From a virus, in the UHGV virus genome UHGV-0093623: 35,667 nucleotides of DNA; one strand, given 5' to 3'. Position 1 is the first letter of the stretch. Each line of letters opens with the position of its first letter. The notes beneath the pieces were generated by a model that saw only the letters and a list, made by a program, of their open reading frames with translations, was not told the DNA's origin and made no database searches. Made by a program: the position numbers and the translations under genes. Below, piece by piece: positions 4,239 through 23,087 of the stretch.

Positions 4239-4429
4239 GGACGCACCTCCACCGTAGTTACGTATTTAACCGGGCTACCTTTCATTGAGATGGTTTCACA
4301 CATCTCTGCCGCTTTCAGTTCCGCTGTTTTTCTGGATTTATAGCGACGGTGCCAGACAGATACATCCGTGCGAACTGATACATCGTTTCTGTATTCCGTA
4401 GTGGAGATGATGATTTCGTAACTAATCAT
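4235..4429 (-). CDS. hypothetical 64-aa protein
   Basis: ATGA overlaps on both sides. Confidence 0.4.
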   Translation of the reverse strand: MISYEIIISTTEYRNDVSVRTDVSVWHRRYKSRKTAELKAAEMCETISMKGSPVKYVTTVEVRP

Positions 4430-4977
4430 GGGCGAACCTCCTTGTCAGAACCATTCAGCCTGGAATCAACAAGTGCAGCGCCAAAAACAGCATCACCAAC
4501 ACGGTCGTACAGTTTGCTAGCCAGCGGAGATTCAACGGCCTTAAGCATTGGATAAAGCTGGCTTGTCCAGATTTGATGGATTTCACGCAAATGCAGGTAT
4601 ACGCCTCTGGCGTTTCGTGCGACAGCTGACATATCAACCGCGTCAGCACCAGATAAATTCTTCTCCATCTGGTTAAAGGCGTTGATGTATGCCTCTTTGA
4701 ACCGGGCTGCACGTTTGCCAGTAAAGCCCATAGCAAGGAACGCGAAGCCATCGCGGGTGATTTGATAGCAAGGTAGTTTGCGGCCTGTGCAATCGGTGTA
4801 ATCACTGGGCTGAAAATTCAGCTCAGTGAATTCAACAGAGCACTCAAGCGTCTGGATTTTTTGAATAACGTTTTTGTGCTGCTTGCAGAAATATTCGGCA
4901 ACGACCAAAGAAGAGGTAACAGCCTTCCCATGGATAACATCAATTTTAGGGTGAGTTTGGGTAGGGGTGGTTGCCAT
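4426..4977 (-). CDS. Rha-family phage regulatory protein (start at internal ATG 4977; the ORF stays open to 5274)
   Basis: Rha-like motifs GKAVTSSLVVAEYFCKQHKNVIQKI and YQITRDGFAFLAMGFTGKRAARFKEAY; GAGGA 7 nt upstream of ATG 4977; upstream 100 codons are low-complexity. Confidence 0.7.
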   Translation of the reverse strand: MATTPTQTHPKIDVIHGKAVTSSLVVAEYFCKQHKNVIQKIQTLECSVEFTELNFQPSDYTDCTGRKLPCYQITRDGFAFLAMGFTGKRAARFKEAYINAFNQMEKNLSGADAVDMSAVARNARGVYLHLREIHQIWTSQLYPMLKAVESPLASKLYDRVGDAVFGAALVDSRLNGSDKEVRP

Positions 4978-5296
4978 AGTGACATCCTCATGTGCGAATT
5001 TTGAAAACTCACCACATGGGACGCCAATCACAGAGGTGGTGAGACGTACAGGGTTGGCGTAACCGGTCGCACATGACCCCGGCGCATCTTTCGATGCCCC
5101 TGCACGCCCCACCATAATTTGGATGTGAGGAAACGTGCGCAAAAAAACCGCTGAAGCGCGGTTATGCGCATGTGCGAATTTCAGGACGCCAATCCCGGCA
5201 CCCGCTTTATAAGGTGCGGAGACAGTGTAACGTCCCGAAATTGCAGAATCAATATTTGGTCTTGAAATGATCATATAGCTGCTGATATCTTTAGAA

Positions 5297-6330: not shown

Positions 6331-6418
6331 AGATACTTTGTTATCCAACGATGTTAACCGCGGGAATCCAAAGTATCAAGAAATTCTGTTACTTTAGTAT
6401 CAACAGCCATGAGAGGAG
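6331..6418. promoter_or_regulatory. divergent early promoter/operator region (OR-like)
   Basis: minus-strand TTGATA-N17-TAACAT (plus 6374-6379 and 6351-6356); three copies of a GTATCA-core motif (6332-6340 inverted, 6369-6377, 6396-6404); cI RBS GAGAGGAG at 6411-6418. Confidence 0.5.
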
Positions 6419-6425
6419 AAGAAAA

Positions 6426-7082
6426 ATGAAGTCTTTAGGTGAACGTCTCATCAACGCACGGCAAAAAGCTGGGTTAACACAAGATGCGTTGGCTAAAAAA
6501 GCTGGGATCACCAGAGTTGCAATCAGTAAAGCCGAGCAAGGCCTTACAAAAAGTTTCAACGGTGACACCCTTTTTAAAGTTGCAGCTGCACTGCGGTGTT
6601 CACCGCAGTGGCTTCAGAACGGAGATGAAAAAGATAAGCATTGGGAAAATAATGTTAAGAGCTGCCCACAGAGAGACACAGCACACTCTTACCCTGTAAT
6701 TAACTGGGTTCAGGCAGGATTATTCGCAACTTCTGGTGATGACTACAACATGTATGATCAGGATAATTGGAGGCATTCTGTAAAATACGCTGGTGAGAGG
6801 GGGTTCTGGCTGGAAGTGCACGGAGACTCAATGACTTCGCCCGTAGGAATAACATTTCCTGAAGGAATGTCGATCCTTGTCAACCCAGATAAAGAAGTTT
6901 TTTCAGGGTGTTACGTCATCGCCAGAAAAAAATCCACCAATGAAGCAACATTCAAAAAATATATTTCTGACATGGGAAAGGCGTTTCTAAAGCCCCTTAA
7001 TCCACAATATCCAATCATAGAAATGGACAATGATTGCGAAATAGTAGGTGTTGTGGTTGATGCCAGGTGGGATATTTTCTGA
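6426..7082 (+). CDS. CI-like prophage repressor (HTH_XRE + S24 LexA-like peptidase)
   Basis: HTH LTQDALAKKAGITRVAISKAEQG; C-terminal GDSM and downstream Lys (ARKK); start chosen at ATG 6426 with RBS. Confidence 0.85.
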   Translation: MKSLGERLINARQKAGLTQDALAKKAGITRVAISKAEQGLTKSFNGDTLFKVAAALRCSPQWLQNGDEKDKHWENNVKSCPQRDTAHSYPVINWVQAGLFATSGDDYNMYDQDNWRHSVKYAGERGFWLEVHGDSMTSPVGITFPEGMSILVNPDKEVFSGCYVIARKKSTNEATFKKYISDMGKAFLKPLNPQYPIIEMDNDCEIVGVVVDARWDIF

Positions 7083-7108
7083 CCAGACACAAAACACAAA
7101 AAGAAACC

Positions 7109-7181
7109 AAAGTATCAAAAATCACTTGCCACACCTTGATACCTTAGTTACCATAAAACAAAGTTCGTAACTGAGGTATCA
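7109..7181. promoter_or_regulatory. OL-like operator/promoter region downstream of cI
   Basis: GTATCAA at 7112-7118, inverted TTGATAC at 7136-7142, GGTATCA at 7175-7181; TTGCCA-N17-TACCAT at 7126-7154. Confidence 0.4.
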
Positions 7182-7185
7182 TCTC

Positions 7186-7689
7186 ATGATCAATAAAGCT
7201 ACAACTCTTGACTGTCTCGAAGAACTGAAAAACCTCGGCAGCCTCATTACACTAATAGCAAAAGCAACACCTGATGCTACGCTCTCTAGCGATATAGAGT
7301 CATGCGCAGGACTGGCATGGGATATGACAAATAGCATATCCAGAAAGCTATCGTCAGCAATGCTTTTACAGAACAAAAATTCTGCAATCAACAACCGTCT
7401 TCGCACCCAACGCGAAGCCTGCGGCTTAACAACCGCCGAACTCGCCAGGCTGCTCGATCTCGATGAAGAAATTATCATCCAGTGGGAGAGCGGAGAGTAT
7501 GAACCAACTATCAGTATGCTTATCCCACTGGCAAATATTCTTGGCTGCGATCCGATGTGGCTGTTAACTGGTGAGGTTACTCCTCCGGAGCAACCAAAAA
7601 GTGAGGAGCAGCAACACCATGACGCATCTCAACAAGTTTGCCCCTTATCTCGCGAAGCTCTTCTGCGGAAGAACCAATACCAATGGTGA
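7186..7689 (+). CDS. HTH_XRE-domain protein (167 aa), first gene of the leftward operon
   Basis: HTH segment LTTAELARLLDLDEEIIIQWESGEYEPTISMLIPLANILGCDPMWLLTGE; GAGGT RBS; true start could be an internal Met. Confidence 0.6.
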   Translation: MINKATTLDCLEELKNLGSLITLIAKATPDATLSSDIESCAGLAWDMTNSISRKLSSAMLLQNKNSAINNRLRTQREACGLTTAELARLLDLDEEIIIQWESGEYEPTISMLIPLANILGCDPMWLLTGEVTPPEQPKSEEQQHHDASQQVCPLSREALLRKNQYQW

Positions 7690-7817
7690 CATAATCGCCG
7701 CTTCGCCCTTCAAGGTACATGCGAACATTTTTATCAATCATTGCGGAAACAGTCTCAATATGAAAACACTTCTGAGACTCGCTATATAGCAGAACATATA
7801 AGTCAGCTGAGGAAGCC

Positions 7818-8183
7818 ATGAAAAAGTTCGAAAACATAACTGTTCTCCATGTTGATGACTTTGATTATACAAACCCGGAACTTCTCCCGGAGGTTGTAAA
7901 GGCAATAGATGTTGCCGATATAGTGATTAGAGAAAAGAGAATTGTCAAAAACAGGCTCGCATGCACTTCAGGAGCAATGACAGAAACAACCTCACAGCAA
8001 GATAATTACGAAGGCATTTGTCTGGAGCCTGATTCATTTGCGGTAAATGTTTATCATTTATTGCATGCAACACAGGTATTACATATGTCCAGTAATCACG
8101 AAACGAAAACACTCGGCAGCGAAATTCTGAGTTTTGCATGTGAGTATACAAAAGCTGCTGCCGAAAAAGAATTAGCGCAATAA
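7818..8183 (+). CDS. hypothetical 121-aa protein
   Basis: GAGGA 4 nt upstream of ATG. Confidence 0.6.
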   Translation: MKKFENITVLHVDDFDYTNPELLPEVVKAIDVADIVIREKRIVKNRLACTSGAMTETTSQQDNYEGICLEPDSFAVNVYHLLHATQVLHMSSNHETKTLGSEILSFACEYTKAAAEKELAQ

Positions 8184-8377
8184 CAACAAATATGCCCTGA
8201 ACGTTTATTGCGGTTTTATCGCCGGGGATTGTTACAACCTTAATCCACAGGAGGCTTTATTGTGACTTTTATAAAGAATATGGCATCACACAAGACCGCC
8301 TGCCTTATTGCACAATACGGTGAAAATTACATGCATATTGCCTGCTTATTTCTGCGTAAAGCATACGGGAGATAATA

Positions 8378-8578
8378 ATGCATCAGAAAACAGCAGAACA
8401 CGAACAAACCAGAGTATTGCTGACCATCAAAAACGGGAAAGTAATATTCATTCGCCATGTTCATGACGATGAACTTGTAGGAACTCTTTCAACATTCCTG
8501 TTTATTGCAGAAAGGGCAGGATATGACGTTATTGCACCAGCAGATGAAGATGAAGATGAAGATGAAGATGAGGAATAA
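8378..8578 (+). CDS. hypothetical 66-aa protein with poly-acidic C-terminus (DEDEDEDEE)
   Basis: GGGAGA RBS; 5 nt before the next gene. Confidence 0.55.
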   Translation: MHQKTAEHEQTRVLLTIKNGKVIFIRHVHDDELVGTLSTFLFIAERAGYDVIAPADEDEDEDEDEE

Positions 8579-8583
8579 ATATC

Positions 8584-9165
8584 ATGCAATACGATGAATT
8601 CCAGGCTGAAGCAACAGCCAATGGTATACGAACTGGCAGTATGACGATTGATTATCACGACGCCATACGTCGTCTGGATGCCGGAGAATTCGATACTCCT
8701 AATGTGCGAGGTTTACGTATCCTTCAGTGTCTGGCGCAAGCCGACGAAGCAGGATTACTGGGTAAACTTCCGGTTGAGATGAAGGTTGCTCAGTGGCGAT
8801 GGTTGTATGTGACGACATTCATCAACGAAGAAGAAGACAAGAACGGCACAATTGATATCCTGAATGAACACGGAACAACTGAACACGCCGTGGTATATAA
8901 CGGGATGTATGGGTTTATGACGATATATCCCGGCCCCATTCGATTTGCCTTACAACAGTATATTGAATGGAATTTAATTCAAAAATACGGCGAAGCTGAA
9001 GGAATGGGAAGAGCGCTGTTTCTTTATCAGAAAATGCTCACTACTTCCCCTGATAAAGGTTTCATTCTTTCAGATATGGGTCGAGAAGGGCTTGAAATCC
9101 TTCTGGATGAAATTATTAACGAAATGAATACTCATGGCATGCAATCCGAAACAGATATTAAGTAA
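8584..9165 (+). CDS. hypothetical 193-aa protein
   Basis: GAGGA RBS inside the upstream gene tail. Confidence 0.6.
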   Translation: MQYDEFQAEATANGIRTGSMTIDYHDAIRRLDAGEFDTPNVRGLRILQCLAQADEAGLLGKLPVEMKVAQWRWLYVTTFINEEEDKNGTIDILNEHGTTEHAVVYNGMYGFMTIYPGPIRFALQQYIEWNLIQKYGEAEGMGRALFLYQKMLTTSPDKGFILSDMGREGLEILLDEIINEMNTHGMQSETDIK

Positions 9166-9175
9166 AAGGGACCAC

Positions 9176-9424
9176 ATGACCGTTATCGAGTATATCCAGG
9201 AAAATCCAGATTGCAGTAGAGAAGATATATCCCTCGCACTTGGAAGAAGCGCAACTTCTATCAGTAATGAATTATCACGGTTATTGTGGAATGGGTTAAT
9301 AGTACGAACTGGAGAAAAAAACAAAATGATTCTGTACTGCGTAAACAATCTGCCGTTTGGATACAGCAATCCCCTAAGTGTTATGTTCAACCAGTTACTT
9401 AAACAGGTAAGAAATGGCAACTGA
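9176..9424 (+). CDS. hypothetical 82-aa protein, possible winged-helix DNA binding
   Basis: AAGGGA RBS 5 nt upstream of ATG 9176. Confidence 0.5.
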   Translation: MTVIEYIQENPDCSREDISLALGRSATSISNELSRLLWNGLIVRTGEKNKMILYCVNNLPFGYSNPLSVMFNQLLKQVRNGN

Positions 9425-9731
9425 CTCACAACTAACCATAGAAACGGCCCTGAATGTCGGCCTGGCGCTCCTTGGTTATTTTTACATCGTGTTCTGCAGC
9501 GGACGGTGGCTGTCGCTGTTGTTCCTGAAAAAATGGAATAAACGCCGTAAGCAGGATGAACGCCAGAAGGCAATGAATGCGTTTTCCGAAGCCTTCGGAA
9601 TTGACGGCATGGAACCAGGGGATCCAGCTCGCGCAATCAGCAGAGGGGGTGTAGTAATCCTTGTATATCGGAGTGAAGAGAAAAATGACGATCACAAAAC
9701 AACGAGTAGAAAAAATCATATATCGCCATGA
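9414..9731 (+). CDS. hypothetical single-pass membrane protein (105 aa)
   Basis: hydrophobic segment ALNVGLALLGYFYIVFCSGRWLSLLF; overlaps neighbours on both sides. Confidence 0.4.
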   Translation: MATDSQLTIETALNVGLALLGYFYIVFCSGRWLSLLFLKKWNKRRKQDERQKAMNAFSEAFGIDGMEPGDPARAISRGGVVILVYRSEEKNDDHKTTSRKNHISP

Positions 9732-9999
9732 AATGGGACTGAACAGCGATGTCACTGCCGAAGAGGTTTATGACCTGGCTGTACTGGCGCTGAATTTATC
9801 AAATATCGCAAACCTGAAGCGATACGAGCTTGATATGGATGGTTGCGACTCGTGCGGTCAGGATTGTGGCGCAGATATGACTGAAGATCCTGATGGTGAT
9901 TATGTCCTGTTTGATGACGTGGTTAAGTTGTTTGAATTTGATACAACCACTCAAAAGTTAGAAATCCCGGCAAAGGAGGCTGCCAGTGAGCAAGATTGA
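9685..9999 (+). CDS. hypothetical 104-aa acidic protein
   Basis: ATG 9685 preferred over the TTG at 9661. Confidence 0.5.
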   Translation: MTITKQRVEKIIYRHEMGLNSDVTAEEVYDLAVLALNLSNIANLKRYELDMDGCDSCGQDCGADMTEDPDGDYVLFDDVVKLFEFDTTTQKLEIPAKEAASEQD

Positions 10000-10168
10000 C
10001 TATCAGGCACTGCGCGAGGCGGCGGAACAGGCAACGCAAGATGAATGGGTAGCATATATTTGCCGGGTCATAACGGCATTTATCCTGCGCGCACGTCTGA
10101 GGGTAGGCATTGCGGATACTTTATTGACTGGCCTGGCGTCTGTCAGGGGCGGGAGAGCATCAACATGA
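9986..10168 (+). CDS. Ea22-like N-terminal module, truncated (60 aa)
   Basis: GTG start preceded by AAAGGAGG; N-terminus MSKIDYQALREAAEQA parallels the gene at 10668; stop overlaps the next ATG. Confidence 0.45.
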   Translation: MSKIDYQALREAAEQATQDEWVAYICRVITAFILRARLRVGIADTLLTGLASVRGGRAST

Positions 10169-10671
10169 GCATCAGAACCTACGCAGTGAATTGCAATGAC
10201 GCATGGCTAAACACCGAAGGTGATGACATCTCCGGCTCATACGTTAAGTACAAAGACCATCAGGAAGTGGTTGCCGCTCTTGAGGCCAAGTGCGCGGCGC
10301 TGGCAGCGGAGAATGCGGGAATAAAGTCTGCAATTCCAGAATCACGGGATATTGAAGATGACAATGACAATATGGATGACGTATCTCTCGCGGAAGACTT
10401 CGGGTTCAATCATGCAATAGAACGGATGAGGAGACAGATACCTGAAACGCCAACCACTGATGCTTTCCTGGCTGAAGTCCGGGCGCAGGGGGTGGATGCT
10501 GCTATAGAAGCTGCAAAAAATCTGGTGGCCCAAGAATATGAGTATAAGGATTTCAAAGCGGCGCAGAGTGATTGCTGTATGTACCCTGGTTCAGACCTGG
10601 TAGGGAAGGTTGAAATGACTGAGTGGTTAGTTGACTTTGCTGCCCAGCTTCGCAAAGGAGGCAACCAGTGA
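10165..10671 (+). CDS. hypothetical 168-aa acidic protein
   Basis: ATG 10165 with GGGAGAG upstream; ATGA overlap with the preceding ORF. Confidence 0.5.
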   Translation: MSIRTYAVNCNDAWLNTEGDDISGSYVKYKDHQEVVAALEAKCAALAAENAGIKSAIPESRDIEDDNDNMDDVSLAEDFGFNHAIERMRRQIPETPTTDAFLAEVRAQGVDAAIEAAKNLVAQEYEYKDFKAAQSDCCMYPGSDLVGKVEMTEWLVDFAAQLRKGGNQ

Positions 10672-11333
10672 GCGAAATTAATTACCAGGCACTGCGTGAG
10701 GTGGCGGAACGTGCAATTCCAGCAATGGAACGCCTGTTAATGTTGCCAGCTGATGATGACTTGTTAAGTGAACAGGAACTTAAAGATTACGGTGTGGATA
10801 TTGATGCGCTCAACGCCTTCAAATTTCTGACCGGACCAGAAACCGTGCTGGCACTGCTGGATGAACGGGAAAGAAACCTGCAATACATCAAAAGCCGCGA
10901 TCAGGAGAACGAGGATATTGCGCTAACGGTAGGGAAGCTGCGTGTTGAGCTGGAAGCAGCAGAGAACAACCTTATTGATAGTGAATGCCATGTTGCTGAA
11001 CTGGAAGAAGCGCTACGCGATAAGCAGGCGTTACTTGAAGCCTCAGAAAAGCGCATAGCAGAACTGGAAGCACGGGAAATAAAACCAGCCAAAGGCGAAG
11101 TTCTTGTCGTTGTATCTGGTTTTACTGGTTGCGGAAAAAGCGCCATTGCCGGGGAAATAGAAATCGCGATGAAGGCTATTGGTGTACCGGTTAAGTGGAC
11201 TAATGGCGATGCAGAAAAGCGCATGACTGGCGCTGACTGGCTGACAGCGATTGAGATGTACAAACCAACTGTGCGCATCGTGGAAGTTAATGTGCCACGC
11301 GCCGCTGGCATTCGCATCAAAGGAGGTGAGTAA
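10668..11333 (+). CDS. Ead/Ea22-like protein
   Basis: GTG start with AAAGGAGG RBS; N-terminus MSEINYQALREVAERA; TVLALLDERE motif; coiled-coil centre. Confidence 0.65.
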   Translation: MSEINYQALREVAERAIPAMERLLMLPADDDLLSEQELKDYGVDIDALNAFKFLTGPETVLALLDERERNLQYIKSRDQENEDIALTVGKLRVELEAAENNLIDSECHVAELEEALRDKQALLEASEKRIAELEAREIKPAKGEVLVVVSGFTGCGKSAIAGEIEIAMKAIGVPVKWTNGDAEKRMTGADWLTAIEMYKPTVRIVEVNVPRAAGIRIKGGE

Positions 11334-11509
11334 TGCGTGTGGCATGTATCGGCTTGTTACCGTACCCGACTCGTTTTTGGGCTTCTGCGCTAATTGCAAA
11401 GCCACATGTCCTGATGGCTGACAACATCATCCCGGCACCAAAGCGCCGCCATACCGGTATTGCATCGGCACGACGAGCAGCAAAGAGACGCAGGAGAGCA
11501 AAACGATGA
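11333..11509 (+). CDS. hypothetical 58-aa basic protein
   Basis: not in ORF track (under 60 aa); AGGAGG RBS 6 nt upstream; TAATG and ATGA overlaps with flanking genes. Confidence 0.4.
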   Translation: MRVACIGLLPYPTRFWASALIAKPHVLMADNIIPAPKRRHTGIASARRAAKRRRRAKR

Positions 11510-11697
11510 AAAACCGTAAAGCAAAGATTCTGTTAGTTCGTAGAAACGCTCCTGGCGTCTGGCAGTGGGTGAGACTCAGCAACCGACGGATGGGGTTAAT
11601 GAAACATTACGGGATGATGGATTGTGGTTTTTGCAAAAAGCCCAGCGCGGCGCAAAACCGCTGGAAAAACCACTGTCGCATTAATAAGGAAAACTGA
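11506..11697 (+). CDS. hypothetical 63-aa Cys/His-containing protein
   Basis: AGGAGA RBS; ATGA overlap. Confidence 0.5.
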   Translation: MKNRKAKILLVRRNAPGVWQWVRLSNRRMGLMKHYGMMDCGFCKKPSAAQNRWKNHCRINKEN

Positions 11698-11698
11698 T

Positions 11699-11962
11699 AT
11701 GGCAACTTTGACAAAAAAAGAACAGGCATGGTTGAACGAATTACAGGACGTTCTTGATCGCTGCCCATCACCGAAAAAAATTGGTTTTTACACCATTGGC
11801 GATAAAAGCATTTACCTGTATGACCTGCGCCGCATGGATGAAATCATGGAGGCTCTTGATAATCGTTCGTCAATGGATTGGTGTGTTGCTGTCCATGATA
11901 TGAATGCAGGGTTTGATGAAAAGATTTTGTTCCCCTCATCAGTTGAAAGCACTGCGGGTTAA
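11699..11962 (+). CDS. hypothetical 87-aa protein
   Basis: ATG 11699 with AAGGA upstream. Confidence 0.55.
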   Translation: MATLTKKEQAWLNELQDVLDRCPSPKKIGFYTIGDKSIYLYDLRRMDEIMEALDNRSSMDWCVAVHDMNAGFDEKILFPSSVESTAG

Positions 11963-11972
11963 GGAGTAACAC

Positions 11973-12140
11973 ATGACCACTATTACCAAAGAACGTATTG
12001 AATTGTTCATTAAAAACCCGCTTGAAAACGGGCTTACCCGTGGTGAACAAATGGAACTGGCACGGATTGCGCTGGCATCGCTGGAAGCAGAGCCGGTTGT
12101 GTTCTGGTTTGAAAAATATCAAGAAGGGGCTACGGCATGA
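11973..12140 (+). CDS. hypothetical 55-aa protein, paralogous at its N-terminus to the next gene
   Basis: not in ORF track; AAGGAG RBS 6 nt upstream; MTTITKERI vs MTTFTREQL; ATGA overlap with 12137. Confidence 0.5.
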
Positions 12141-12481
12141 CGACTTTTACCAGAGAGCAGTTAATAGCTCACGCAGAGGAGACTATTGAAGCACAGAGAC
12201 TGTGCATACCGGGCACAATCGACCATGACATCATCCGCACATATAAGATGGATATTGCTGTTCTGGAAATCGCACTGGTATCGCTGGCAGCAGAGCCAGC
12301 CGGTAAATTGCATGAATACAAACCAGTGGGATATCAGCGTCTGGTCGATGAGTTAACCATGCTGGTAAAGCAGTTAACCTGGCAACTGAGGAAAGCGAAG
12401 CCAGACTGCAAATTACCGGATAAGGCGATGAGTTATCTGGAGCGGAACGGACTGATAAGCGTGGAGGATATTTTACGATGA
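12137..12481 (+). CDS. hypothetical 114-aa protein
   Basis: ORF track; ATGA overlap. Confidence 0.6.
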
Positions 12482-12561
12482 CCTGGCCTGAAGCATTAAC
12501 AACGGTAGGAATTGCGATGGCGGTGGCGCTGGTGGTGTATTCGATTTGCCGCTGGGGATAA
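12478..12561 (+). CDS. candidate 27-aa hydrophobic peptide ([27 protein letters not shown])
   Basis: ATGA overlap with the upstream stop; GGAGGA 9 nt upstream; single predicted TM helix. Confidence 0.3.
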
Positions 12562-12659
12562 AAACGGTTTGCGGGAAAAGGAGAGTTAAGTAGAATTGCA
12601 GCGGGTGCTTGAGGCTATCTGTCTCAGGCATGAACACCAAAAGGCAGATAGAGAAAAGC

Positions 12660-14510
12660 CCCAGTTAACATTACGCGTCCTGCAAGACGCTTAACATTAA
12701 TCTGAGGCCAATTTCATGCTAGACACATGTAGGTTAGCCTCTTACGTGCCGAAAGGCACGGAGAAGCAGGCTATTGTTAACACCAAGCTGTAATGTCCCC
12801 TTTGAACCATTCTAAAATGTCCCCAGACAATTCTCTGGGGGATTTTTCATGATCAAAGAGACTGTTACGATGAGTCATAAGGAACTCCACCGACTTCAGA
12901 TTATTCAGGAACAAGCTGCGGCACGCATTGGCATTTCTATTCGGCAGGTTAAACGTCTGGTGCAACGGTATAGAAATGAAGGGCCTTCTGCTCTGGTTTC
13001 CCACCGACGTGGAAAGCGTCCTAATAATTCCTTTTCTACTGAATTCAGAGCAACAGTAATTTCACTCCTCAAAGGCCGTTACGCTGATTTTGGACCTACG
13101 TTTGCGTGCGAAAAATTGCGCGAGATACACGGTTTATCTTTATCCGTTGAAACTCTCAGAAAGTGGATGATAGAAGAGGGGTTATGGCGTGAACGCCGTC
13201 GTAAAATTGCCCGTATATATCAACGCCGCATGCGACGACCATCTTACGGTGAACTGATCCAGATTGATGGCTCACCTCATGACTGGTTTGAAAATCGAGG
13301 CCCCAGATGTACACTGATCGTTTTCATTGATGATGCCACCAGTGCGTTGATGGCGTTGCGTTTTGTGCCTGCTGAAACAACCCGGGCTTACATGGAAACC
13401 CTCCGGGGTTACCTTAATGATCATGGCGTACCGCTCGCTCTCTACTCTGATAGACACAGTATATTCAGGGTAAATAACCCAGAGCGGGAAGGTGAGCTGA
13501 CCCAGTTCACTCGTGCGATAAAGACACTGGGCATCGAGCCAATCCATGCCAACAGCCCGCAGGCAAAAGGGCGGGTAGAGCGCGCCAATCAGACACTACA
13601 GGACAGGCTGGTCAAAGAAATGCGGCTTCAGAATATCAGTGATATTGAAACAGCAAATGCATGGTTGCCGACCTTTATTGAAGCCTATAACAACCGGTTC
13701 GCTACGTCGCCTCGTACTACTGATAATGCTCATCTTGATGTGCACCATTCTGAAGAGGAACTGGGTTATATCTTCAGCCTACAGGCGAAGCGCGTTCTGT
13801 CTAAAAATCTCACTTTCCAGTACAAAAGCAGTGCGTTTCAGGTACGCAGTGAGGGCCGGGGATATCGACTTAGGCATTCGGTTGTTACTGTATGCGAGAA
13901 CTTTGACGGTGAAATTAACGTTCTGTATGACGGGAAAGCGCTGGGCTGGGAAAAGTATGTTGATGGCCCGGAGCCTATACCACTGGATGATGAAAAGAGT
14001 GTCCATGAACGAGTGGATAATGCCCGTATTGATTTACGCTCAAAATACTATGTTAAACCTAAAGCTGACCATCCCTGGCTTACGCGCCGAACGCAAAGTC
14101 ATCAGCAAGTTAAGCCCCCGAAGTTACCTAAAAAGAAGCCTGATCCCGATAAAAAAGATTGAAACCAAGATCGATTCGGTTGAGTGCATATCCATTCATA
14201 GGGTAGATTCTTAAGTCGCGTTTCTGGTGTTCATTTTCGGGTGGTTTGTTACTTGTTTTACCGGGGATATGCCAGAAACGCGCTGAGTCAGTCTGGGCGG
14301 TGCGCGTAATGAGGCGTTATGGTAAATAGCCTATGCTAATGTCCGCTAAGAGCAAGAAGCGGAAGTTGGCAGTTTTGTGGACTGTCCCCACAAAAGTGAC
14401 TACAGAAATAGTTGCAATTCATAATTGATCATGGGTTGTCAGTTAAACTCGTGGCGATTTAAATAGACTAATTGGGAGTGCGTCCATTACTTATATCTTG
14501 TAATGTTAAC
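12660..14510. mobile_element. insertion sequence (approximate extent) carrying the DDE transposase
   Basis: candidate 12-bp terminal inverted repeat AGTTAACATTAC near 12663-12674 and its reverse complement near 14499-14510; boundaries not verified. Confidence 0.25.
12849..14162 (+). CDS. DDE-type transposase (N-terminal HTH + integrase-core fold), IS481/ISNCY-like
   Basis: 437 aa; N-terminal HTH region, central acidic residues in IQIDGSPHD and FIDDATS; family assignment tentative. Confidence 0.8.
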   Translation: MIKETVTMSHKELHRLQIIQEQAAARIGISIRQVKRLVQRYRNEGPSALVSHRRGKRPNNSFSTEFRATVISLLKGRYADFGPTFACEKLREIHGLSLSVETLRKWMIEEGLWRERRRKIARIYQRRMRRPSYGELIQIDGSPHDWFENRGPRCTLIVFIDDATSALMALRFVPAETTRAYMETLRGYLNDHGVPLALYSDRHSIFRVNNPEREGELTQFTRAIKTLGIEPIHANSPQAKGRVERANQTLQDRLVKEMRLQNISDIETANAWLPTFIEAYNNRFATSPRTTDNAHLDVHHSEEELGYIFSLQAKRVLSKNLTFQYKSSAFQVRSEGRGYRLRHSVVTVCENFDGEINVLYDGKALGWEKYVDGPEPIPLDDEKSVHERVDNARIDLRSKYYVKPKADHPWLTRRTQSHQQVKPPKLPKKKPDPDKKD

Positions 14511-14598
14511 TATCAGAAATGATACAAAGATAATATGTCTTTAAAGAAAAGGCTGATGGCGAAAAGTGGCCCGATGAGGGCCACAATACGGCTGTCAC

Positions 14599-14931
14599 TT
14601 AGACGTAAATATCAATGGTGCCAGCGGTATTTGTATCGTCTTTTTTCTCTTCTTTTTTATCAGGCTGAACTGTCGCGTCTTCATTCTTTTTCTCTGCCTG
14701 CTGCCTTAACAACTGCTCCAGTTGAGCCCAGAGGCTTTCAATTTGCTTCTGTACCAATGCAGCCATTTCTTTTTTCTGCTGTGTCGTCATCCCCTCTTCC
14801 GATGAGATTTTCCCAAGCTTTTCAGTCAGCACCTGAATTTGTCTTGTGATTTTGGCTATTTCTGATGTTCCTTCCGGGGCGGAGTTGTTTGAAATAACGG
14901 TTGAGGTATTTCCCTGAATTGTGACAGACAT
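14599..14931 (-). CDS. flxA: FlxA-like protein (110 aa)
   Basis: protein recognised as Qin-prophage FlxA-like; preceded by a consensus sigma-28 promoter. Confidence 0.8.
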   Translation of the reverse strand: MSVTIQGNTSTVISNNSAPEGTSEIAKITRQIQVLTEKLGKISSEEGMTTQQKKEMAALVQKQIESLWAQLEQLLRQQAEKKNEDATVQPDKKEEKKDDTNTAGTIDIYV

Positions 14932-19481: not shown

Positions 19482-19781
19482 AAAAATTCCTTAATACTGA
19501 TAACTTGGCGCACTATACACACGTTCCTGAAGAAAGCTATAGTTTTTTGATGGGGTTGAAGATGGCTGGATGTCTAAAATAAACATTGCTTCATATGTTC
19601 AACTATGCGTTAATGATTGCGTCGGTTTGAAGAACAGACGATATACGAAGTAGTTTACTAAAGCAGTTCTCATTTCAGGTGTTATTCACTTATTCCTTCT
19701 TTGAGTCTCTCCAATTAAGTACGAAGTCGTTTCTGTTATGCAAACCATTTATGCCGAAAGGCTCAAGTTAAGGAATGTAGA

Positions 19782-19997
19782 ATGTCAAATAAAATGACTG
19801 GTTTAGTAAAATGGTTTAACGCTGATAAAGGTTTCGGCTTTATTTCTCCTGTTGATGGTAGTAAAGATGTGTTTGTGCATTTTTCTGCGATTCAGAATGA
19901 TAATTATCGAACCTTATTTGAAGGTCAAAAGGTTACCTTCTCTATAGAGAGTGGTGCTAAAGGTCCTGCAGCAGCAAATGTCATCATTACTGATTAA
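19782..19997 (+). CDS. cspB: cold-shock protein CspB
   Basis: 71 aa, [21 protein letters not shown]... with RNP motifs. Confidence 0.9.
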
Positions 19998-20277
19998 AAT
20001 TCATCGCTCGTCTGTATACGATAACGAAGAAGGCTGATGCCTGAGTAGAGATACGGACAGAGTAGTGAATATTGGATCTCTTTAATAAAAAGTAAGGAGG
20101 TCCAATACATGAAACAATGGCTAGCATATTTGGCAAAATCTTAATCAGGAAAAGTATGCTAACCATTGTGGTGAAGTGCAGGTTTGCTGCATGAATAGTT
20201 TTACAGCAGAAGCTAACTGCTGGCATGGCAAAACAAAGTGCGTAAGTGGATGACTCCCACAAAAAGCACCACAATCT

Positions 20278-22306: not shown

Positions 22307-22669
22307 GGTAATATTAAATCGGAACATTTACATCGCGGAATGTAAAATTTAAATAAAAAGGACTCTTCCATGAGCCAAAATTCCTGAAATCTTAAGGGTA
22401 AGATAAAAGGTCTTAATCAGAATGACACGTTTTATTAATAAATAAAGCTATTCTTTCATTGCTGTGTTTTTCTTTACAAAAGTAATCCTTGCTATGGGTG
22501 GTTAATCATGCGTTAATGGTGTTCTGGTTTGTTACAAATTTATCTGAAGCAGTCATTGTTATAATTTTATTATTTGTACCTCTTGAGATTTCCTTGTTGG
22601 TTTTTCTCTCTGATATTTTTTTTTCGGACCATTCTGCCCAAGGGCTAATTTCTTCAAAAGGTAATAATT

Positions 22670-22882
22670 ATGTCTAACAAAATGACTGGTTTAGTGAAAT
22701 GGTTTAACCCTGAAAAAGGTTTTGGTTTCATCACGCCGAAAGATGGCAGCAAAGATGTGTTTGTCCATTTCTCAGCAATTCAGAGCAACGATTTCAAAAC
22801 ATTAACTGAGAATCAGGAAGTTGAATTTGGTATTGAGAACGGACCTAAAGGTCCTGCCGCTGTTCATGTAGTGGCGCTTTGA
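22670..22882 (+). CDS. cspI: cold-shock protein CspI
   Basis: 70 aa, [21 protein letters not shown]... Confidence 0.9.
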
Positions 22883-23087
22883 GGTAGACAATATTACAAA
22901 CCATATTCACTTTAGATGCCCGTGTTGTCATGGTTCCCAGTATAGAACATCATCTTTTGATGTTTCTGACATGAATCCTTTCGGGGCAAAATGTATCTTT
23001 TGTAAATCAATGATGATTACATTTGATAATATTTCACAATACTTAAATGCCAGCCGTCTGTCGTTGGATTTAAAAAAGTGAAAATGA

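Follow-up and report, generated by a model that had tools for sequence, protein, structure and literature searches.

What occupies the place beside the repressor of a lambdoid prophage when none of the genes usual there can be recognized? The question is raised by a train of six plus-strand genes, here called g1 to g6, at positions 7818-9999 of a 35,667-nucleotide stretch of DNA from UHGV virus genome UHGV-0093623, the whole of which is referred to below as the window. An earlier inspection of the letters and reading frames (the sequence-only reading) had described the train as unannotatable and accessory, and as a candidate defence or anti-defence locus. We arrive at a plainer answer, with a confidence of roughly 0.65 that applies to the general picture and is much lower for the role of any individual gene: 7818-9999 covers the genes nearest the promoter in the early-left (PL) operon of a lambdoid prophage like phiP27 and the Stx1a phages, a kind that is common in E. 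coli. The genes in it are ordinary in kind, further copies of catalogued hypothetical families, and most likely encode lytic-cycle regulators and binding proteins for host takeover.

Position and reality of the genes

The place of the train is set by the operators. Inverted and direct repeats are common to the cro-cI intergenic region, 6332-6403, and to 7103-7181. Exact copies of TTGATACYWWRG number 4 in the window, and all of them lie either within 6368-6403 (OR), between cro and cI, or within 7107-7147 (OL), just past cI; weaker operator copies are found at 6332-6345 and 7167-7181. A promoter scan finds the promoter-like site TTGCCA-17-TACCAT at 7126-7154. Operators and promoter sit between the cI stop codon and an open reading frame (ORF) for a helix-turn-helix (HTH) regulator, which makes the genes from 7186 rightward those of the PL operon. 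The same genes lie between cI and xis-int in annotated relatives, namely Escherichia phage PhiR49_2 (99.3% identity), the yecE prophage of strain SF-088 (99.5%), Stx1a-converting phages of the "PPyecE" type (89%), and phiP27. The properties of a lambdoid PL operon are thus all found: the genes are co-oriented, they stand beside the cI operators and promoter, and in intact relatives they end in xis-int. Inside 7818-9999 there is no strong terminator and no intergenic room for promoters, an Rfam scan of the same interval gives no RNA family, and G+C is 0.42-0.44, below that of the flanks. The train had earlier been placed where lambdoid phages carry N, cIII, kil, gam, and red, and operators, promoter, and annotated relatives all bear this out.

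The same reading had listed six plus-strand genes with ribosome-binding sites and tight spacing, and each is present where it was put. All have a purine-rich Shine-Dalgarno-like motif 4-11 nucleotides upstream, and the gaps between them are small or negative, with 5 nucleotides from g2 to g3, an 11-nucleotide overlap of g4 with g5, and a 47-nucleotide overlap of g5 with g6. Two more genes have to be added, the micro-protein gene s37 between g1 and g2, and anti86 on the minus strand (Table 1). As a measure of coding we use the ratio of non-synonymous to synonymous change (pN/pS), computed against relatives of 76-92% nucleotide identity. In frame it is 0.16-0.52 for the C-terminal half of g1 and for g3 to g6, and 0.27-0.47 for g2 in two comparisons; it exceeds 1 only for g2 against one relative (L004), at 1.09 with five substitutions only. 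In shifted frames it is mostly about 0.5-2.3, higher in most comparisons. Citrobacter and Salmonella prophages have full-length homologues of g1 and g3 that are 31-46% identical, and over the whole set full-length homologues in other genera range from 31 to 68%. The AlphaFold2 models are confident, and each gene falls in a PHROG family.

All this bears on the possibility that the ORFs, or some of them, are chance frames or non-coding spacer in a decaying prophage. The N-terminal half of g1 has 0 synonymous and 4 non-synonymous differences from close relatives, numbers too small for a judgement; the Prokaryotic Genome Annotation Pipeline (PGAP) annotates g1 in SF-088 only as a 68-amino-acid (aa) short form, and neither s37 nor g4; and the prophage is rearranged. 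Set against the conservation just described, these points leave that explanation with a negligible probability, and we regard it as excluded by the conservation analysis. The six ORFs are real coding genes, and all the genes are under purifying selection.

Table 1. Features of the train and its surroundings (window positions, except in the last row, where the positions are those of the relatives' loci)
Feature	Position	Strand	Description
cI-type repressor gene, S24/LexA-type	6351-7082		operator clusters on both sides
OL operators and PL promoter-like site	7103-7181		three TTGATAC-N5-GTTAC-type sites; repeats, promoter scan
XRE-type HTH regulator, first PL gene	7186-7689	+	167 aa; Pfam HTH_3 3.8e-11
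anti86	7577-7837	-	86 aa; GGAGA Shine-Dalgarno 7 nucleotides before ATG at 7837; PHROG 6104 over full length
g1	7818-8183	+	121 aa
s37	8262-8375	+	37-aa basic micro-protein; GTG start, AGGAGG ribosome-binding site
g2	8378-8578	+	66 aa; isoelectric point (pI) 4.4
g3	8584-9165	+	193 aa; pI 4.6
g4	9176-9424	+	82 aa; internal ATG of ORF 9134-9424
g5	9414-9731	+	105 aa
g6	9685-9999	+	104 aa; pI 4.1; internal ATG of ORF 9661-9999
Frameshifted Ea22-like gene	9986-10671	+	Pfam Ead_Ea22 2.4e-13
Second Ea22-like gene	10668-11333	+	Pfam Ead_Ea22 5.4e-33
ParE_like gene in relatives	L007 2874-3092; L009 2870-3091; L010 3196-3417		29-nucleotide overlap with the end of the g2-like gene

Fixed backbone and mobile cargo

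To see which genes travel together, we use the 73 IMG/VR loci that have a g3 relative (67-100% identity) and enough flanking DNA. A g1 gene (at least its C-terminal half), s37, and g2 are present in 73/73, anti86 in 36, g4 in 48/73, g5 in 42/73, and g6 in 32/73. Farther out, Citrobacter and Salmonella prophages keep the order of HTH regulator, anti86, and g1, then s37, then g2, then g3, and the last three keep their order also in Klebsiella phage KPP5665-2 and the E. coli phages CharmingMan and phi467; in Aeromonas AsXd-1, s37 and g3 are present and no g2 match was found. Among complete E. coli genomes, some part of the train is found in 1468 of 5426 (27%), and at least 80% of it in 117. Because the core is fixed across loci while the cargo varies and moves, the train is a mosaic of a fixed core (g1, s37, g2, g3) with mobile cassettes, and not one multi-gene system. 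The word accessory is therefore wrong for g1 to g3, which with s37 form a backbone that is invariant across genera.

Several of the distant relatives carry inserts, belonging to PHROGs 1737 and 1886 or consisting of a gene with a ParE_like domain (PF24732), and most of them have an ORF6N or Bro-N antirepressor after g3. In KPP5665-2, CharmingMan, and phi467 the ParE_like gene (72-73 aa, E = 4e-20) comes after the g2-like gene and before g3. AsXd-1 has a copy too (L008 2846-3067) and no g2-like gene was found there. The window is without the ParE_like gene, and the properties of a type II toxin-antitoxin system of the ParDE kind are not found. We considered g2 as a dedicated antitoxin of the ParE_like gene and rejected the assignment on the inconsistent pairing in AsXd-1 and in Citrobacter, Salmonella, and the window.

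The cargo begins with g4, in which the sequence-only reading had correctly seen a winged-helix-like pattern. It matches PHROG 1687, "MarR family," at E = 8e-24 over the C-terminal half of the profile, and stays below the Pfam cut-offs for MarR_2 (21.4 bits against 27), HTH_24 (20 against 21.9), and MarR (14.1 against 24.6). Like MarR-type regulators it has the winged helix-turn-helix core, but it is half their length and is without the dimerization helices. By score and by its 82 aa, g4 is a stand-alone winged helix-turn-helix protein and not a canonical MarR.

Following g4 is g5, which is the gene rightly picked out before as having a single transmembrane segment. It belongs to Pfam DUF4752 (PF15944), scoring 125.8 bits against a gathering threshold of 27 and covering profile positions 2-84 of 84. 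Its one hydrophobic segment spans residues 12-30 (Kyte-Doolittle 19-residue maximum 1.67) and is followed by the basic sequence KKWNKRRK. The gene turns up in 135 phage records, with VT2-Sakai, P22-like phages, and mEp043 among them. The next gene, g6, belongs to PHROG 3126, and its N-terminus matches PHROG 3323 and PHROG 60; this helical module is common to proteins of the EaA type, including two encoded downstream by ORFs 11973-12140 and 12137-12481, while the C-terminus is acidic and Cys-rich. It occurs in 63 phage records, among them virulent Salmonella siphoviruses (e.g. LPST10), with 72-86% identity.

After g6 come two Ea22-like genes. The first is broken by a frameshift, with a 60-aa ORF at 9986-10168 that has the canonical MSKIDYQALREAAE start, continued at 10045-10671 in a different frame; in SF-088, too, this gene is marked "frameshifted" by PGAP. 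In E. coli O157:H7 OK1 the g5-g6-Ea22 cassette is found downstream of the replication genes, which is the nin-type position. The known parallel is with the "ea" and "nin" cassettes of P22 and lambda (Ea22, EaA, and genes of the exo-xis region), and g5, g6, and the Ea22-like genes behave alike in having the Ead_Ea22 domain (the genes after g6), the EaA-type N-terminal module (g6), both PL and nin positions, and overlapping junctions. Unlike these cassettes, g1, s37, g2, and g3 are a fixed block and are not shuffled. On our reading, g4, g5, and g6 would be dispensable cassettes of the ea/nin type.

Regulator, antisense gene, and backbone products

The first gene of the operon encodes the HTH regulator, in which a helical domain at the N-terminus is joined to an HTH_3 domain. 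It matches PHROG 4739 and PHROG 4836, the latter named "CII-like regulator," and also, below cut-off, a DicA-like NCBIfam model. Past about residue 130 its tail is read through anti86, and the pN/pS of the tail frame is 1.14; a 138-aa variant of the regulator exists that is without the tail. Anti86 overlaps the 3' tail of this ORF on one side and the first 20 nucleotides of g1 on the other, and its own minus frame has a pN/pS of 0.23, counted from 30 synonymous and 24 non-synonymous changes. Homologues of 58-97% identity are found in E. coli, E. albertii, Salmonella, and Citrobacter. Even where the prophage has another repressor, anti86 still overlaps the HTH tail and the first 20 nucleotides of a 121-aa g1-like gene; that 20-nucleotide overlap is identical in 40/40 loci in which both starts could be aligned. 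In the IMG/VR loci, anti86 accompanies 39 of the 47 long forms of g1 and none of the 29 short forms. It is unannotated in PhiR49_2, and in SF-088 by PGAP.

The anti86 model has no structural match in the libraries searched, and the family profile has no significant sequence match in the PDB. We tried anti86 as a GIY-YIG nuclease and rejected it, since the GIY...YIG motifs with the conserved Arg and Glu, together with significant fold or profile similarity, were not found.

Protein g1 has a conserved N-terminal domain (residues 1-47), kept in homologues down to 31-44% overall identity, and a C-terminal helical domain (about residues 60-121). The protein belongs to PHROG 5451 and its C-terminal half matches PHROG 4587; the C-terminal domain is also found as a stand-alone protein of 66-68 aa in Stx1a phages. 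Hhalign joins the g1 C-terminal domain to the N-terminal domains of the HTH regulators with a probability of 92.9% and E = 3.7e-7, which at the profile level makes it a paralogue of the regulator's N-terminal domain, the part that does not bind DNA. The likeness to CII-like and DicA-like regulators (PHROG 4836) is of the same kind, the C-terminal domain of g1 resembling their N-terminal domain, but g1 is without the DNA-binding part. Because it shares this domain with the regulator, we propose g1 as a modulator of the HTH regulator, in that it would most likely pair with the regulator's N-terminal domain or compete for it, as partner or decoy, and g1 and anti86 together may tune PL-operon regulation or the choice between lysis and lysogeny.

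Between g1 and g2 lies s37, with a pN/pS of 0.19-0.26 in three comparisons. By tblastn it is found at 53-68% identity in phages of Klebsiella, Aeromonas, Citrobacter, Salmonella, and E. coli, and the C-terminus KKAYG[RK] is invariant across them. It is annotated in PhiR49_2 and the Stx1a phages and belongs to no known family.

Protein g2 (PHROG 340, E = 1e-23) is a small beta/alpha domain of 50 residues with a poly-Asp/Glu tail. The tail is encoded by a perfect AGATGA x5 hexanucleotide repeat at 8542-8571, found with Tandem Repeats Finder. Database variants have 60, 62, 64, and 66 aa, the sole difference among them being how many Asp-Glu units they contain, which is what in-frame slippage of the repeat should produce. 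The core matches the C-terminal approximately 45 residues of the antirepressors of PHROG 4792 and PHROG 2379 (E = 1.5e-6 and 1e-3), but g2 is without their DNA-binding or Bro/KilA-N/ORF6N parts. As stand-alone single domains, g1 and g2 would therefore be at most partners or decoys of such regulators.

The largest product is g3, a single-domain alpha/beta protein of an orphan family. Its model is confident and has no structural relative in the libraries searched, and longer proteins with a g3-like region have no informative Pfam domains. PDB sequence searches with g1, with g3, and with the g3-family profile give no significant match. The wider g3 family ends in a nearly invariant P-x-x-H, and the clade of the window ends in QSETDIK with the terminal His lost (9139-9165). 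Isoelectric points are 4.1-5.0 for g1, g2, g3, and g6. Most likely, s37, g2, and g3 would be host-takeover factors, functional stand-ins for the class of Kil, cIII, and Gam.

Proposed role, alternatives, and the state of the prophage

We infer expression time, binding mode, and targets as follows. Once repression is lifted by induction or infection, transcription would run rightward from the cI-controlled promoter at about 7126-7154 and through two layers of genes. One is a vertically conserved backbone of HTH regulator, anti86, g1, s37, g2, and g3, standing where lambda has N, cIII, kil, gam, and red; the other is horizontally shuffled cargo made up of g4, then g5 with g6, then the Ea22-type genes. 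Because the products are small, mostly acidic, and have no recognizable catalytic motifs, they are predicted to act by binding other macromolecules in the lytic or early phase.

The likeness to the lambda PL operon (N, ral, sieB, cIII, ea10, kil, gam, bet, exo) is in the tight packing of mostly small genes transcribed from a cI-repressed leftward promoter beside the repressor gene. It is not in sequence: the genes of the window have no homology to those of lambda, an XRE-type HTH regulator and not N comes first, a protein-coding gene runs antisense within the operon, and the operon has no recombinase or Gam. When all the genes are scanned against PHROG, Pfam, and NCBIfam, no family of N, cIII, Kil, Gam, Bet/Exo, SieB, or Ral comes up, in agreement with the earlier impression that none of the genes resembles N, cIII, kil, gam, bet, exo, or the exclusion genes.

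That the train cannot be annotated had been overstated, as the six genes fall in existing PHROG families (5451/4587, 340, 1515, 1687, 667, and 3126), one is in a Pfam domain of unknown function, and g4 has its winged helix-turn-helix. Homology gives none of them a function, which had been foreseen. In public records g4 goes under "MarR family" and g5 under "DUF4752," all the others being called "hypothetical protein," and identical proteins are deposited in hundreds to thousands of contigs. In phiP27, the Stx1a "PPyecE" phages, and PhiR49_2, the same genes at 89-99% nucleotide identity are also hypothetical (L08, L10, and others). Pfam and NCBIfam scans return nothing beyond HTH, winged helix-turn-helix, DUF4752, and Ea22. 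Literature searches on DUF4752, the phiP27 L08 gene, the six WP accessions, and PhiR49 found nothing relevant, and one on anti-defence genes in lambdoid early operons found no relevant paper.

Might the locus be a dedicated anti-defence island, with g2, g3, and g6 as early inhibitors or decoys of restriction, RecBCD, toxin-antitoxin, or abortive infection? The early-operon location would suit this, as would pI values of 4.1-4.6 for these three proteins, the variation of the acidic tail of g2 through a 6-nucleotide repeat, the sharing of g6 with virulent phages, and the g2-like genes of relatives that directly precede and overlap the ParE_like toxin-domain gene. Gam and Abc homologues, moreover, were not found in this phage by the PHROG scan. 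Yet g1, g3, and anti86 have no sequence match to a solved anti-defence protein, g3 and anti86 have no structural match either, and the block g1-s37-g2-g3 is invariant where hypervariability would be looked for. The ParE_like gene is inconsistently paired with g2, and none of the 39 supplementary files of a phage accessory-gene screen contains the peptide strings taken from g2, g3, g5, g6, s37, and anti86. On balance we think a dedicated anti-defence island unlikely.

Protection of the lysogen is less probable again, to the point of being a poor bet. It would have g5 block DNA entry as a superinfection-exclusion protein, for example, or anti86 expressed in the lysogen as a moron. Several exclusion proteins are single-pass membrane proteins as g5 is, the G+C of the locus is below that of its flanks, and anti86 is oriented against PL, as for a gene expressed apart from the lytic operon; the orientation fits a moron, and the sequences around anti86 that resemble promoters are weak. 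The positions of the genes speak against it, as g1 to g6 lie downstream of the cI operators with no space for promoters or terminators of their own, and g5 overlaps both neighbours. The backbone genes are conserved and not swapped, and g6 is found in virulent phages, for which there is no lysogen that could be protected. PADLOC-DB v2.0 gives no significant match for g1, g2, g3, g5, g6, s37, or anti86, and g4 and the HTH protein match only the generic HTH or winged helix-turn-helix parts of the RmrA, CasR, and CARF models. The suggestion of a defence locus is thus not supported, given the PADLOC result, the cI-repressed promoter with no promoters or terminators of the genes' own, and g6 in virulent phages; of its companion, an anti-defence or host-takeover role, we can say that no specific support was found. 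No homology to known defence, anti-defence, or Red proteins is present.

Some observations count against our picture of an early-left operon of lytic regulators and takeover proteins. The roles given to g1, s37, g2, and g3 are drawn from position, size, charge, and conservation. A pairwise BLASTP comparison between g1 and the HTH protein of the window does not reach significance, the paralogy being seen only between profiles. Lastly, with the prophage rearranged, normal lytic expression in this strain may be doubtful.

The rearrangement is seen at the far end of the operon. In phiP27, the Stx1a phages, and PhiR49_2 the operon ends in xis-int, whereas in the window it ends at about 12556 and runs into an ISNCY transposase gene and a Qin-type region. 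ORF 12849-14162 has the same length as the integrase gene of the relatives, and we considered it as a phage integrase; it was rejected as such and is an ISNCY-family transposase gene. After it, on the plus strand, come ydfW, flxA, relBE, hokD, rem, and a Qin-type region of Q, lysis, terminase, and head genes up to 35667. From this switch at about 12556 it follows that the early region is inverted relative to the late genes, and that the prophage is rearranged and probably defective. At a coverage of at least 80%, the junction stretch 11300-14600 is found in 0/5426 complete E. coli genomes.

Rfam matches are found elsewhere in the window. One to sok, the antitoxin RNA of hok/sok, is at 12603-12775 on the plus strand, just upstream of the ISNCY gene, with 110.5 bits against a gathering threshold of 59. 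On the minus strand, C4 antisense RNA (75 bits) and isrK (62 bits) match at 5032-5119 and 5141-5217, inside the 5' part of a Rha/antirepressor-like gene at 4426-5274, which suggests an immunity element of the P1/P7 c4-ant type on the PR side of the prophage. In the late region, cspA-thermoregulator matches at 19621-20013 and 22523-22909 on the plus strand (159 and 112 bits) are presumably the 5' untranslated regions of cspB/cspI-type cold-shock genes of the Qin-type sequence.

As a defence-discovery lead the locus is weak, and the interest that remains is in the conserved triad of regulator, antisense gene, and g1, and in the structurally orphan g3 family. Parts of the train are common in E. 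coli genomes and Stx-converting phages, yet no gene in it has an assigned function. A bolder view, which we put forward tentatively and with more doubt than confidence, is that in lambdoid phages without N the start of PL is a new control module of XRE regulator, g1, and anti86, followed by a host-takeover or anti-defence set of s37, g2, and g3 that replaces cIII, Kil, and Gam. If true, at least one new regulatory mechanism and one new family of host-targeting proteins would lie in a block that is conserved from Escherichia to Aeromonas. The paralogy of g1 with the regulator and the overlapping antisense gene provide two concrete, testable hypotheses, and the fixed g1-s37-g2-g3 backbone bears on the way the early programme is run in lambdoid phages that have neither N nor Red.

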